Shown: piece by piece, positions 31,379 through 61,190 of the stretch
How positions within the stretch are numbered: the first letter of the stretch is position 1
How the letters are laid out: each line of letters starts with the position of its first letter
NCBI GenBank assembly: GCA_043821365.1
Contig: JBDRCX010000006.1
Span: 640,001 to 704,000 of the forward strand
Source: Candidatus Micrarchaeota archaeon
Lineage (GTDB): Archaea; Micrarchaeota; Micrarchaeia; Anstonellales; Bilamarchaeaceae
Direction: 5' to 3'
Length of the DNA: 64,000 bases
Made by a program: the position numbers and the translations under genes
Notes under the pieces: generated by a model
The model's database searches: none
What the model saw: the letters and a program-made list of their open reading frames with translations, nothing else
What the model was told of the DNA's origin: nothing

Positions 31379-32774
31379 ATCTTTGATTTTTTTATTCTTA
31401 TTAATTGGAATATATCTGGCAAGTGCTGAAGAGTACGAGCACCCATTATTTGCAACTTCCTATGCAAATGCTAATGATAATGTGACGTTATATCGTTTTA
31501 GGATTTTGAATAATGAAACTACTCAAACATTGCCATTTAGGGTTTGGCTTACCAGTGATATGAATTGGTTTGATCCGTCAATATTTAGCTATGCACTACA
31601 ACCTGATGGTTCGGATCAAGGTAAACCATACTGGGACTTACCACCAATATATCCAAATGAAAGCTCTGAAATTTCTTTTACAGTAAATAGGACTGTTGGG
31701 CTCCCAGACAGAATATCAGTTTCCACACAACAAATAGATAGATGGAGTGGAGAATGTAGTGATTTTGCACCATATAATGGTTCAAGTTCATCAAAAGTGA
31801 AAATACAAACCTATCTTCAGTCATTAAACAAATCCGGAAATGTTACACTTTATTATGAAGAAGGGGATTATGCAATCGCATATCTTGAATACTACAAAAC
31901 ATATGCAGTTTTCACCATAAATAATATCACGATGGTGGATGATGAAACTATAATCTCAAGTTTAGCATCAAATTATACTAAAAAAGTAGCAACTCCTGTT
32001 TCTGTAGATTTATCTGAAATAACTTCAGCATTTGAAGGATCAGTTACTTTGAAAGCAGATGCAGAAGCAGAATGTTATCGGATAAGCGGTATGGATAGAA
32101 ATCCATGTGTTGACCGTGATAGTTGTCTTTATGCCTGTTTCTCAGTTCCAGTGTGTTCCAATATAGGTCAAGTTGGCTGGGATTTTATGGACACACTATT
32201 AGACTTTAATCAAACAGTATCAACTACCAATTTAAAGCTAGATCAAATGATAGTATCAAGTGCTGATTTTGAAAACTCTCCAACATATGAAAAAGCAGAA
32301 GCATTATTGGAAGAGATGATTGACCTTAACAGGCAAGAAACTGAGGTCATCTATCATCCACTTTACATATCATATGGTTTTTGTCCTCCTGCAGAATATG
32401 GGATTCCCCAACAATTAGGTGCAAGAAGAATATTACTAGATTATTTAGAAGAAAATTGTATTTATGGTAAGGAAAACTTTATTGTAGAAGAAAGTTTACA
32501 CACTGCTGAAGTTTTAGCACCTCCAAAGCCAAAACCACCAGTCAATGTTAATCAAACAATTAATACGTCAACAAATACCTCCATTCCAAATGTAACGATT
32601 ACTAATAATACTATTCAGAACACCTCTCAGAATACAACTGAATGCTGCATTGGCAGTATTTGTTCAATCGGGGGGGTAAAAACAATTGCAGGAATCTGTT
32701 GGCAGTGGGCAACAATAGGAGTTGTTCTAATTTTGGCAATCGTCTTCTATATAACAAAACCAAAAAGAAGATAA
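31371..32774 (+). CDS. Secreted, C-terminally anchored hypothetical protein
   Basis: Signal peptide MNKSLIFLFLLIGIYLASA; Cys cluster; Thr/Asn linker; C-terminal TM like those of the upstream paralogues. Confidence 0.7.
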   Translation: MNKSLIFLFLLIGIYLASAEEYEHPLFATSYANANDNVTLYRFRILNNETTQTLPFRVWLTSDMNWFDPSIFSYALQPDGSDQGKPYWDLPPIYPNESSEISFTVNRTVGLPDRISVSTQQIDRWSGECSDFAPYNGSSSSKVKIQTYLQSLNKSGNVTLYYEEGDYAIAYLEYYKTYAVFTINNITMVDDETIISSLASNYTKKVATPVSVDLSEITSAFEGSVTLKADAEAECYRISGMDRNPCVDRDSCLYACFSVPVCSNIGQVGWDFMDTLLDFNQTVSTTNLKLDQMIVSSADFENSPTYEKAEALLEEMIDLNRQETEVIYHPLYISYGFCPPAEYGIPQQLGARRILLDYLEENCIYGKENFIVEESLHTAEVLAPPKPKPPVNVNQTINTSTNTSIPNVTITNNTIQNTSQNTTECCIGSICSIGGVKTIAGICWQWATIGVVLILAIVFYITKPKRR

Positions 32775-32777
32775 ATT

Positions 32778-33617
32778 GTGATTAGTGTGGAATTCGATGA
32801 AGACTTAGCAGCTATTCATGCTTATTTGTGTGCAGACGGTTATGTTATAAAAAACCCACCCTCCCAGAAACACAAGTATTACCACATTGGTCTTAGAAAT
32901 ACTAATTATGTTTTGTTGGAGGATTTTCAAAAAAGATTTTATCGATACTTTGGCATAACTCCCATCATAAAATTTGGGAGAGCGAAGATACAGAATAAAT
33001 TGATATATGAAAAACTGACTGAACGTTATACTTATTATTCTGATAAATGGAATATGCCAAAATTAAATAAGAAATATCTAAGTTATTGGCTCAGGGCATA
33101 TTTTGATTGTGATGGTTGGGTCTACGTTCTTAAGGCTAAGAATAGAAAAATAAGTTTAGATTCGATCAATCACACTGGTCTTTTAGAGATACAAAATTCA
33201 CTCTTCAAAACTTTTCTCATTAAATCTATCATTAAAAAGAGGAAAAATAGACATATTTGGTCATTGTCAATATTCGGTAAAGATAATATTGAGAGATTTG
33301 CTAAAAACATTGGATTTTTGCACCCAAAAAAGAAGAAAAAACTAAATGAAGCCATTCTCTCCTATGTGGATTATAATTGGTTAATCCCAGAAAACAAACC
33401 AGCATTGATCAAGTTTATAAAAACCAGAGGGAGATTGTCTAAAAAAAGAGGGCAGGTTAGATTTAATTCTATTTTAAAAACTAATTTGTCTCGATTTAAA
33501 TCAATTCTTAATAAATTCGGTACCAAATCAATTATATCTAAAAAGTTCTTTAATGGTAATAAAAACGGATACTATACATTATCAATCAAGTTGAATGATA
33601 TAGATAAATGGAGGTAA
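32778..33617 (+). CDS. Free-standing LAGLIDADG-family endonuclease-like protein
   Basis: Two motifs: LAAIHAYLCADGYV and WLRAYFDCDGWV; no intein splice motifs. Confidence 0.75.
   Translation: MISVEFDEDLAAIHAYLCADGYVIKNPPSQKHKYYHIGLRNTNYVLLEDFQKRFYRYFGITPIIKFGRAKIQNKLIYEKLTERYTYYSDKWNMPKLNKKYLSYWLRAYFDCDGWVYVLKAKNRKISLDSINHTGLLEIQNSLFKTFLIKSIIKKRKNRHIWSLSIFGKDNIERFAKNIGFLHPKKKKKLNEAILSYVDYNWLIPENKPALIKFIKTRGRLSKKRGQVRFNSILKTNLSRFKSILNKFGTKSIISKKFFNGNKNGYYTLSIKLNDIDKWR
33610..33615 (+). promoter_or_regulatory. Shine-Dalgarno GGAGGT for rtcB
   Basis: 6 nt upstream of ATG 33622, inside the end of the upstream gene. Confidence 0.6.
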
Positions 33618-33621
33618 CTGA

Positions 33622-36547
33622 ATGGGATTTGGAAAAAATATCAAAAAACCCAATTTCAAAAAAATAAGCGATTACATCTGGGAAATTGGAACCGATTATA
33701 AAGAAGGAATGAAAGTTCCAGCCAGGATATATGCTAGTAAAAATATCCTTGATCAGATGGACATGAACGTCTATGATCAGGTTACAAATGTTGCAACTTT
33801 ACCAGGTATTGTGAACTACGCCTATTGCATGCCCGACGGCCACATTTCTTTTGATTAAAAAGAAAGGCAAATCCGGGTATGGATTTCCAATAGGTGGAGT
33901 TGCTGCCATGGACATTAATGAAAATGGAGTAATTTCACCAGGTGGTATTGGATTCGACATTAATTGTGTCCATCCAGATACTAAAATACTTGCAGAATAT
34001 GGCTATTATAAAAAAATAAAGGATTTTCAAGATGATTTCTCTGAGGAAAGATTATCCTGTATGGATTTGGCAGATAATAAAAAGAAATCTGCAAATCCCA
34101 TACTAACTCTATGCAAAAAAGCAGATTCGCCAGTATTATCTATAAGAACAAAAACTGGTCAAGAAATACTAGTTTCTGCAGATCATCCCTTACTTTCGGA
34201 TAATGGTTTTAAGGAGGCCGGAGATCTAAAAGAAGGTGATAGTTTGCTTATCCATCCCTTTGTTGGTATTGAATATGAGGTTCCAAAAGATTATACAATA
34301 CTAGATGAAAAAGATGTAATCAATCTGGTCGGTAATAGAAAAAAATTAATTGCCAAACTAAAAGCAGAAGGTCTACTACCGCTAAAATCAAATTCAAAAA
34401 ATCTTCCAATTCTTGCAAAATTAGTTGGTTTTATAACTGGAGATGGGTGGGTAGGTTCTTATTATTCTAAAAAAAGAGCAATGGATATCTGGTCAACCAG
34501 AATAATCGGCAAACAGGAGGATTTGGAAAAAATACGGGAGGATCTTTTACAATTGGGGTACGAAACCAATTTTATCCGAACAAACAAATACTCCAGCAAA
34601 GTGAATCTCGAAGATGGAACTGATCGGGCAATAACAGGCGAATCAACACAATTGTATCTTAATTCTCAATCATTAAGTGTACTTCTTCATTTACTCGGAG
34701 TGCCTAAAGGTAATAAATCTAGAACTAAAACATCAATACCAAAATGGGTTAAACATGCACCATTATGGATAAAACGTTTATATCTGGCAGGATTATTTGG
34801 TGCCGAACTTAGTAAACCAGCTCAAAGAAAAAATGAAGAATTCAGCTTCATAGAGCCTAACTTTAGCCAAAATAAGATTGATAGTTTAAAACAGGACAAT
34901 CTTAATTTTATGTTAGATCTAACCAATCTGCTTCTGGATTTTGGGGTGAGAGTGAATAAGATATATGAACAGAAAGGAGTTGTGAATGTTAGGGGTGAGA
35001 GGACCCATAAGCTTGCATTAAGAATTTCTGCCAAACCTGAAAATCTTATTCGATTGTGGGGTACCATAGGTTATGAATATTGCCACGAAAGAACTGTGTG
35101 TTCAATGCTTGCTATTTCTTATTTGAACTATAAGGTTGCTGTTTTAGAAAAAACGGATGTAGAAAATGAGCAATCATCGGGAGCACAAAAAACAATTTCC
35201 CGAATTCGGATTGGTTCGTCATTTCCAACTTTCAAAGAATTTATCGAACAACATATTGTAAAAAATTCCGTATTCATAAAAGATGAAATATCAGACATCA
35301 AATTTTCAAATTATGGTGGATATGTTTACGACTTTACTATGAATGACAAAAACCATAATTTTATTGCAAATAATATCGTGTCTCATAATTGTGGAATGCG
35401 TATCATCCGTACAAACTTAACCTACAAGGATGTCCAGCCAAAATTAAGAGAACTAATTGATAAATTATTCAGAAGTGTACCAGCCGGAGTTGGAAGCAAA
35501 GGGTTTGTGAAATTAGATGCATCAACATTCAGAAAAGTAATTGAAGAAGGATCAGAATGGTGTATAGACCAAGGATATGGTTGGAAAGAAGATTTGGAAG
35601 TAACTGAATTAGGCGGTAGAGAAAAAGATGCAGATAATAGAACTGTAAGCGATAAAGCAGTTCAAAGGGGAAAAGACCAAATCGGTACATTGGGAAGCGG
35701 AAATCATTATCTAGAAATCCAAAGAGTTCTAGAAGAAAACATTATCGACAAGCAATTAGCTAAAAAGTGGGGTATTTTCCCAGATCAGATAGTTGTTATG
35801 TTCCACTGTGGAAGCAGAGGATTTGGTCATCAAGTTGCAACAGATTATCTTAATCTATTCCTAGATGTGATGAATTCAAAATATAAAATAAAAATATTAG
35901 ATAGAGAACTTGCATGTGCACCATTTAATTCTCCAGAAGGTCAGAATTATTTCTCTGGAATGAAATGTGCTATGAATATGAGTTTTGCCAACAGACAAAC
36001 AATTCTACATCAAGTAAGAAAGGTTTTTTCAGATGTATTTGCAACTGATGCTGAAAAACTTGGTTTGCATCAAATATACGACGTTTCACATAATCGCGCG
36101 TCAATTGAAAAACATGATGTTGACGGAACTATGAAAGAATTAATTGTACACAGAAAAGGTGCAACTGCGGCTTTTGGACCAAATAGGCCAGAAGTAACAG
36201 CAAAATACAGAGAGGATGGTCAGCCAGTTATTATTGGCGGTAGTATGGAAACTGGTTCATATTTGCTTGTTGGTGCAGAAACAGGTGCACAAACATGGTT
36301 TACAACTGCTCATGGCTCAGGAAGAACAATGAGCAGAACAGAAGCAAAAAGAAGGTATAGGGGAGACCAATTGCAAAAAGACATGGAACAACATGGTATT
36401 CTAGTGAAAACAAATTCACTGGCAGGACTTGCTGAAGAAGCAGGAGCTGCATACAAAGATATAGATGAAGTTATTGAATCTGCTCATTCTGCAGGTATCT
36501 CTAAAAAAGTTGTTAAGTTAATTCCAATAGCTAACGTGAAGGGCTAA
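33622..36547 (+). CDS. rtcB: RtcB RNA/tRNA-splicing ligase, join(33622..33843,33872..36547), containing an intein
   Basis: Joined ORF gives MPDGHSGYGFPIGG, GFDIN/CG, GSGNHYLE, HCGSRG, HRKGAT, HGSGR, EEAGAAYKD: 965-aa precursor, 490 aa after intein removal. Confidence 0.9.
33844..33871 (+). other. Putative 28-nt BHB-like mRNA intron in rtcB
   Basis: ATTTCTTTTGATTAAAAAGAAAGGCAAA holds an in-frame TAA and an 8-bp hairpin; removal restores frame and motif. Confidence 0.75.
33965..35389 (+). mobile_element. Intein (475 aa) with a LAGLIDADG homing endonuclease, inserted before the catalytic Cys of RtcB
   Basis: DIN|CVHPDT...IVSHN|CG junctions; block B SADHP; endonuclease motifs LVGFITGDG and YLAGLFGAE. 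Confidence 0.95.
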
Positions 36548-60800: not shown

Positions 60801-61190
60801 ATGAAGATCTTAGTTTTTGGGAATTTGCTGGTAAAACAAGATTCTCTTGCCCTTAAACTAATGAAAAAACTATCAAAAGAATTCCCAGAGATTGAGTTCA
60901 AAGAATGTGATGGTGCAGAGTCAATCGAATCTGAGGGTAAGAACCTGCTAATTCTTGATGTTGCTCAAGGCATAAAAAAAGTGACCATACTGAATGGGAT
61001 GGATGATCTAGAGGTTACTCATCCATATTCAATGCATGATTTTGATCTTTCAATTACTCTGAGAATATTGAAAAAAATAAAAGTAATTGACTCGGTTAGG
61101 ATCATTGCCATTCCTATGCATTATAAAGAAAAACAAGCATTTGAAGAAGTCTCTAAAATCCTTTCCACTTTACTTTCAAAAAGTGTGTAG
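60801..61190 (+). CDS. Hydrogenase maturation protease-like protein
   Basis: VFGN.LVKQD, ILDV, SMHD motifs; adjacent to the large subunit. Confidence 0.7.
   Translation: MKILVFGNLLVKQDSLALKLMKKLSKEFPEIEFKECDGAESIESEGKNLLILDVAQGIKKVTILNGMDDLEVTHPYSMHDFDLSITLRILKKIKVIDSVRIIAIPMHYKEKQAFEEVSKILSTLLSKSV

Follow-up and report, generated by a model that had tools for sequence, protein, structure and literature searches.

A candidate relaxed bulge-helix-bulge intron in the catalytic motif of the splicing ligase gene rtcB of a Micrarchaeota archaeon, and its probable mobilization with a neighboring LAGLIDADG gene

Among archaeal protein genes, splicing had by 2009 been confirmed for none except cbf5, in whose pre-mRNA introns the endonuclease EndA cuts between nucleotides 2 and 3 of the bulge within unconventional bulge-helix-bulge (BHB) motifs (PMC2738675). 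Here, we analyzed rtcB, the gene of the splicing ligase, in a 64,000-nucleotide (nt) stretch of DNA, hereafter the window (GenBank assembly GCA_043821365.1, contig JBDRCX010000006.1, positions 640,001 to 704,000 of the forward strand), from a Candidatus Micrarchaeota archaeon. This groundwater archaeon is represented by a 1.2-Mb metagenome assembly that is 87% complete (G000; other genomes are labeled G0xx and their rtcB loci L0xx or L1xx). The gene is broken at its conserved DGH-SGYG motif by a 28-nt insert, and we argue that this insert is very probably a relaxed (HBh'-like) BHB intron of the rtcB pre-mRNA, which would be cut by EndA and joined by RtcB. Full-text literature searches returned no description of an rtcB intron, nor of BHB introns in protein-coding genes of DPANN archaea.

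The closest described system is the cbf5 intron of Crenarchaeota (Watanabe 2002; Yoshinari 2006; Yokobori 2009, PMC2738675), with which the rtcB insert shares an unconventional relaxed BHB, cuts predicted between bulge nucleotides 2 and 3, the need for a broad-specificity EndA, and gain and loss by lineage. Unlike in cbf5, the host gene is that of the splicing ligase itself, whose product would be needed for its own message, and it is carried by DPANN archaea, whose EndA is of the epsilon2 or another type, and not by Crenarchaeota with the (alpha-beta)2 type. Moreover, the rtcB introns differ from that of cbf5 in occupying several registers and sites within one gene and in their linkage to a free-standing homing-endonuclease gene. 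Finally, splicing of cbf5 was shown by cDNA, whereas the rtcB introns are known from sequence alone.

The non-canonical tRNA introns of ARMAN-2 and other Micrarchaeota (PDB 4FZ2; PMC5829648, PMC12397907) offer a second comparison, as G000 likewise encodes a full-length epsilon2 EndA homologue and the rtcB insert likewise shows the relaxed hBH/HBh' type of motif, which epsilon2 and (alpha-beta)2 EndAs are able to cleave (PMC5829648). In contrast to these tRNA introns, the rtcB substrate would be an mRNA, in which the exon strands of the helices are coding and synonymous sites are therefore constrained. As in HAC1/XBP1 splicing, a protein-only endonuclease and a ligase would splice an mRNA, RtcB being the ligase for metazoan XBP1; there, however, Ire1 takes the place of EndA, splicing serves regulation and is induced by stress, and the ligase gene is not a substrate. 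Mobile archaeal rRNA introns encode LAGLIDADG endonucleases, e.g., I-DmoI. In the collaborative homing of phages, an adjacent free-standing endonuclease mobilizes an intron that lacks an endonuclease of its own (PMC2790892; see also PMC6083498). Like these mobile systems, the rtcB locus combines an intron, here of BHB type, and an endonuclease, here of the LAGLIDADG family; the intron is patchily distributed, and a sister species has an empty site. The endonuclease is encoded not within the intron but upstream of rtcB, an arrangement also seen in the phage cases, where the introns are of group I and the enzymes of the GIY-YIG, HNH, or other types. The distance of ~230 nt between the endonuclease gene and the intron insertion site is close enough for co-conversion, as in homing systems.

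The gene is organized as follows (window coordinates).

33622-36547, plus strand: rtcB, whole gene, broken between DGH and SGYG by the insert
33622..33843, plus strand: rtcB exon 1, 74 codons, final residues MPDGH
33844..33871, plus strand: predicted mini-intron, BHB type (HBh'-like), 28 nt, in-frame TAA at 33856-58
33872..36547, plus strand: rtcB exon 2, intein included, Pfam RtcB E 4.7e-150
33965..35389, plus strand: intein, 475 amino acids (aa), Pfam Intein_splicing E 3.1e-18, Cys1 ... SHN followed by Cys+1

The ATG of rtcB (33622) stands four bases past the stop of the upstream LAGLIDADG gene, which ends at 33617. From there, the exon 1 frame reads to ...ATG CCC GAC GGC CAC (33843) and then into ATT TCT TTT GAT TAA, closing as an open reading frame (ORF) of 78 aa (33622..33858), and the downstream rtcB frame reopens at TCC GGG TAT GG (33872) and stays open through 36547. 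Excision of 33844-33871 joins MPDGH directly to SGYGFPIGG. A preliminary description of the locus had reported a 28-nt insert with a TAA stop breaking rtcB at this motif, and its coordinates and the restoration of the frame were reproduced; the 490-aa mature protein that it announced is obtained only if the 475-aa intein, absent from that description, is removed as well (74 + 891 - 475 = 490). Exon 1 aligns with residues 5-67 of Pyrococcus horikoshii RtcB and terminates exactly at MPDGH67, and the C-extein aligns with residues 98-481 (E 1e-120) and keeps the GNH, HxGSRG, HN, and HG(A/S)GR motifs.

The unconstrained minimum free energy (MFE) fold of 33822-33888 proved to be the very structure that had been drawn in the preliminary description. 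Its energy is -22.5 kcal/mol compared to -12.8 +/- 2.8 for shuffled sequences (z = -3.5; 1 of 200 shuffles as good), and it consists of the following elements.

33828-33835 / 33874-33881, plus strand: outer exon-exon helix
33836-38 / 33869-73, plus strand: internal loop, 3x5
33839-41 / 33866-68, plus strand: central helix with the exonic GGCC (33838..33841), three Watson-Crick pairs, G33838 opposite A33869
33842..33844, plus strand: 5' bulge of 3 nt, A-C before and A after the predicted 5' cut (33843/33844)
33845..33865, plus strand: inner hairpin h', 8 bp (33845-52 / 33858-65) and a 5-nt loop (33853-57)
33866..33873, plus strand: intronic strand of the central helix, GGCA, then in the internal loop A-A before and T-C after the predicted 3' cut (33871/33872)

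The 5' junction thus falls after bulge nucleotide 2. The 3' junction falls inside the internal loop and not in a clean bulge, at the position predicted by a 4-bp helix plus 2 nt. The fold does not have the two opposite 3-nt bulges separated by a 4-bp helix that make up the strict hBHBh' motif, but it contains the central helix, the single 3-nt bulge, and the flanking helix of the relaxed HBh'/hBH motif as defined in PMC5829648. An Rfam search of 33500-34200 returned no family match. A single fold is weak evidence when taken alone; the comparative sequence data presented below go far beyond chance.

We scanned one genome per prokaryotic species for the pattern ATGCCNGAYGGNCAY, a gap of 15-45 nt, and GGNTAYGGNTTYCC, with the coding motifs as the sole anchor. 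The scan yielded 70 loci, 69 of them in DPANN genomes (Micrarchaeota, Aenigmatarchaeota, Woesearchaeota, and Nanoarchaeota), with inserts of 21-36 nt; the remaining one (L099, Geobacteraceae) is a chance match to the pattern and not an intron. Together with G000 and the congeneric genome G005, 71 distinct inserts were available, of which 32 shift the frame, and each of the other 39 carries an in-frame stop. Every sequence was then folded without frame information, and the fold was searched for a pair (p,q), a 3-nt 5' bulge, and a pair (p+4,q-1), the intron being read off as p+3..q+5. The pattern of central helix, 3-nt bulge, and hairpin was present in the MFE structure of 59 of the 71 sequences, and the cuts dictated by geometry (after bulge nucleotide 2, and 4 bp + 2 nt away on the other strand) restored MPDGH[S/W]GYGFP in 59/59, where about one third would be expected by chance; in one of the 59 (L098), the sequence breaks off where its locus ends, and the readable part is correct. 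The restored protein is identical in two registers: class A introns cut after CAY with a central helix GGYC/GRCA, and the less frequent class B introns cut after CAT TG with a central helix CCAT/RTGG whose 4 bp are fully paired. The same cut rule also restores the protein at two further sites, between HWG and YGFP, 5 nt downstream, and between GVGY and DINC, which are occupied in other DPANN genomes as follows.

L111, L113, L114, L121, L123, L124: class C introns, between HWG and YGFP, LAGLIDADG gene upstream
L112, L118: site-2 introns, between GVGY and DINC, LAGLIDADG gene upstream

Covariation points in the same direction; since the genomes are related, these counts and those of codons are descriptive and are not to be read as P-values. 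Among the 59 class A introns, the middle pair of the central helix is C-G in 13, U-A in 39, and U.G in 5, with 2 mismatches; the G.A opposition is kept in 53. Pairing reaches 98-100% at the first four positions of the inner hairpin, and as many as five types of pair occur at a single position. With the strands set in the splice register, paired cells make up 99% of the central helix and 97.5% of the inner helix; shifting the 3' partner by 1-3 nt lowers these values to 16-65%. In a gap-free alignment of the 21 introns of 33 nt, 95.6% of cells are paired (84.7 +/- 1.3% in shuffles, 0/500 as high), 31 cells are changed on both sides (10.4 in shuffles), 5 of 12 pairs change on both sides, and the covariation score of 0.365 (0.154 in shuffles) is matched by 0/500; slid controls pair at 32-51%. 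The coding strand bears a corresponding mark, a constraint on exon synonymous sites that intronless alleles do not show: the Gly codon is GGY in 71/71 carriers versus 11/27 intronless relatives, and the Pro codon is CCC in 53/71 versus 4/27. Both helices therefore show the compensatory changes expected of a conserved structure; the preliminary description had named same-site inserts with compensatory stem changes in related genomes as a check, and inserts at this site were found in 69 other DPANN genomes.

These comparisons also bear on whether the interruption is instead dealt with during translation, by ribosome bypass or frameshifting over the hairpin or by synthesis of a split RtcB (the 78-aa product plus a remainder starting from TTG 33851). 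A stop codon with a stable hairpin does resemble bypass signals such as that of T4 gene 60, and there is an ORF with a TTG start at 33851. However, the inserts, of 21-36 nt and in all three phases, lead to one and the same protein only if they are cut by the BHB rule, and the exon-intron central helix covaries, a feature that neither bypass nor a split gene needs. No matching take-off and landing codons are present for a bypass, CAC at 33841-43 having no CAY at the landing side, and the sole repeat, GGC...GGC, would delete the conserved His; for a split protein, the downstream start codons are not conserved among variants. We therefore hold translational handling to be very improbable.

Several points weigh against an EndA-type intron. 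The motif in G000 is not a strict BHB, with a central helix of three standard pairs plus the conserved G.A and a 3' site lying in a 3x5 loop; 12 of the 71 sequences lack the pattern in their single MFE structure; and the genomes compared are related, so they are not independent samples. The case as a whole is built on sequence comparison and predicted folds. Even so, the BHB-like, EndA-type intron suggested in the preliminary description finds strong support in the occupation of the same site in about 70 species, the frame restoration in 59/59, the covarying helices, purifying selection on the gene, and an epsilon2 EndA homologue in the genome, the latter two being described below.

As it stands, rtcB of G000 is out of frame and the genome is an 87%-complete metagenome assembly, so that the insert could be taken for an assembly error or for a disabling insertion in a dead gene. 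Sequencing support, which the preliminary description had proposed to verify, came from an independent sample: of the four Logan contigs tried, two did not align and one bridged the insert (another covered only 33600-33716 plus a divergent fragment), and this contig, from a different sample of the same study, spans 33680-33946 and carries the insert with 0 differences or gaps. Within the genus, rtcB is present in 37 of 40 species genomes, nearly all uninterrupted, ~490 aa long, and reading DGH-S-GYG. Only 3 of these 37 carry the intron, and the closest relatives of G000, G015 and G024, are intronless. The two other carriers, G005 and G053, have a 33-nt insert at exactly the same site, with splice-site parts identical to those of G000, a hairpin longer by 2 bp, and a different loop, and their spliced genes are intact at 490 aa. 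When these two carriers are compared, exon 1 shows a dN/dS ratio of 0.11 and exon 2 one of 0.058, and the ratio of G000 against its intronless sisters is 0.04-0.06; judged by these ratios, both exons are under purifying selection. A pseudogene or artefact is further at odds with the filling of the same site by a covarying structure in about 70 species, with the lack of any second defect (the gene is colinear with the solved RtcB over residues 5-67 and 98-481), and with the status of this gene as the sole rtcB of a genome whose tRNAs need splicing. This reading is already contradicted by the dN/dS values of 0.04-0.11 and the other-sample contig, and we give it next to no credence. The rtcB of G004 (L103, G004:C7, about 61080-61100) was rejected as an intron case, its short frame being due to a 1-nt frameshift in a G-run near codon 24 that is probably an assembly error.

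G000 encodes the machinery that such an intron would require, with the following genes in addition to rtcB, which is single copy.

G000:C6:408560-409741, minus strand: epsilon2-type EndA homologue, 393 aa, matching ARMAN-2 4FZ2 end to end (E 3.5e-132)
G000:C6:480404-480895, plus strand: alpha-like EndA paralogue, single domain, 163 aa
38644..39063 (G000:C6:678644-679063), plus strand: archease, PF01951 E 2.1e-35, 2 kb downstream of rtcB

Archease is an activator of RtcB. An EndA of the type that accepts relaxed motifs, a single RtcB, and its activator are thus all encoded in the genome. The only other ligase-like gene in G000 belongs to the ATP-dependent RNA_ligase family (PF09414). This family seals 3'-OH/5'-P ends and not the 2',3'-cyclic-phosphate and 5'-OH ends that EndA leaves.

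We propose the following model for the maturation of rtcB. In the folded transcript, the exonic GGCC would pair with the intronic GGCA, placing the 5' splice site in a 3-nt bulge beside the 8-bp intron hairpin and the 3' site one helical unit off, in an internal loop closed by the exon-exon helix. The epsilon2-type EndA would cut after 33843 and after 33871, and pre-existing RtcB, inherited from the mother cell and aided by archease, would join the exons into ...DGH-SGYG.... The intein would then leave the protein to give the 490-aa ligase. Making new ligase would probably require that the cell already contain some. This self-dependence of RtcB synthesis may reasonably be inferred because there is one rtcB in this 87%-complete genome and the other ligase-like gene, of the PF09414 family, acts on the wrong ends; it holds if RtcB is the only competent ligase.

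The neighborhood of the intron points to its origin. Directly upstream of rtcB lies the following gene.

32778..33617, plus strand: free-standing LAGLIDADG gene, intact, 279 aa, Pfam LAGLIDADG_3 E 1.8e-22

This gene fills the gap between an upstream 490-aa gene (ending at 32774) and the rtcB start at 33622. Of the 69 other intron-bearing loci, 27 have a homologue (E 1e-43 to 1e-123) at the same position and on the same strand, as does G053; among intronless loci from this genus and order, the count is 0 of 29. In the reverse search, with the endonuclease as query, 19 loci were recovered, and 16 of 16 evaluable ones adjoin an rtcB that bears a mini-intron at one of the sites. In G024, the site is empty: rtcB lacks both intron and intein and directly follows the counterpart of the upstream gene (59% identity), no endonuclease gene lying between them. 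The RtcB tree places the three carriers known in the genus in two well-supported clades, both of which also contain intronless members, and at least 2 gain or loss events are required. The endonuclease gene beside the intron, the patchy distribution, and the empty sites together make up the linkage expected of a homing system, and the intron is probably a selfish element mobilized at the DNA level with the upstream LAGLIDADG gene, in a way akin to collaborative homing and through gene conversion that the endonuclease would drive, as judged from this genomic context. It would sit in the catalytic motif because a conserved sequence makes a good homing site, and the dependence of RtcB on RtcB would be a by-product and not a designed regulator. 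At L037, L049, and L076, the intron is retained although the LAGLIDADG gene beside it has broken up into two ORFs or shrunk to a remnant of ~70 aa, which fits the decay phase of a homing cycle.

The junction flanks (27 nt upstream and 11 nt downstream) are identical in G000 and G005/G053, whose whole genes are only 66% identical, and the sister species of G000 differ there at synonymous sites. Moreover, G005 and G053 differ at 5.4% of nucleotides in exon 1 and 12.2% in exon 2. Flank identity and lower exon 1 divergence would fit co-conversion during homing, but could equally be due to selection on the exon helices. Mobility is also less secure in other respects: G005 and about 40 other loci have an intron without an endonuclease gene, and cleavage of intronless rtcB by the LAGLIDADG enzyme is something that we infer from sequence context.

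Beyond the single locus, we tentatively consider a broader possibility, on which we would not yet rely: the mini-intron and the LAGLIDADG gene may form a composite mobile element that carries introns of BHB type into the rtcB genes of different DPANN phyla through collaborative homing. Carriers would then be locked into a state in which RtcB needs RtcB, with ligase competence inherited and potentially bistable. If true, this intron would be the first of the EndA type to be mobile in a protein-coding gene.

The preliminary description had instead seen in the self-dependence a feedback loop balancing ligase against endonuclease, in which the intron would be kept to couple RtcB synthesis to splicing capacity. 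The single rtcB of the genome, the introns found in 13 of the 19 tRNA genes detected by ARAGORN, and the position of the intron within a conserved motif could all suit such an adaptive autoregulatory circuit, as could the stops of all in-frame variants, with which unspliced message gives no full-length aberrant protein. However, less ligase would mean less spliced rtcB mRNA; low RtcB would lead to still less RtcB, and the wiring would therefore be a positive feedback, not homeostasis. Moreover, the intron is dispensable because only 3 of the 37 rtcB-bearing genomes of the genus carry it and G015 and G024 do without it, and a homing-endonuclease gene and an intein at the same gene are a signature of selfish elements. 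We found no support for the balancing loop and consider an adaptive circuit unlikely; the scattered occurrence of the intron, its absence from the sister species, and the homing-endonuclease gene beside it argue for a tolerated selfish element. The stop codon present in all 39 in-frame inserts (L031-L100) may reflect selection against translating unspliced message into an active-site insertion mutant, and these universal stops may limit the harm done by such message.

Altogether, the intron sits in the catalytic motif of an enzyme that must finish its own splicing, across dozens of DPANN species. What G000 contributes to this set is a Micrarchaeota genome in which an epsilon2 EndA can be demonstrated, a comparison of filled and empty sites between sister species, and three selfish elements in or beside one gene. 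If splicing is true, rtcB, and probably other genes, would be systematically misannotated as broken by gene callers in DPANN archaea, and rtcB would represent a natural self-referential expression loop, its product being needed to mature its own mRNA. The locus would also offer a tractable test of the DNA-level mobility of BHB introns through a neighboring homing endonuclease, with G000 and G024 as a natural filled-versus-empty pair for the homing-endonuclease gene, the intron, and the intein in one gene.

Searches for further spliced messages were less telling. A genome-wide scan of protein genes for BHB introns produced 9787 candidates at first and 111 under a stricter filter. Most of them were ordinary gene boundaries, the stricter filter dropped even rtcB, whose exon 1 is shorter than 80 codons, and the scan is no evidence against further introns. 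An exact search of metagenome contigs for the 35-nt joined-exon junction gave no match and was uninformative.

The tRNA introns of G000 deserve a separate word. The 19 tRNA genes were detected genome-wide, and this low number suggests that many others are probably too fragmented for detection. In the window, a default-mode tRNA scan found none, and the intron mode of ARAGORN found one, as follows.

2598-2850 (G000:C6:642598-642850), minus strand: tRNA-Ser(AGA) with a 178-nt intron

Introns of other tRNA genes (e.g., C3:29526-29643 and C6:368881-369095) form U-run/A-run hairpins with CAAAA(A)C as the tail. A U-run/A-run hairpin and an A-rich tail are likewise present in the rtcB intron, and its hairpin TTTCTTTT/AAAAGAAA with the GGCAAA tail looks like the same module as the hairpins of the tRNA introns.

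The intein has the features expected of such an element, namely, a splicing domain, Cys1, a C-terminal His-Asn, a Cys+1 extein residue, and a conserved host motif, and it bears LAGLIDADG-like motifs of its own. Its insertion point directly precedes the position that corresponds to Cys98 in P. horikoshii RtcB. The reconstructed rtcB genes of the same genus are without an intein, and in the same order some genomes have rtcB open frames of ~935 aa.

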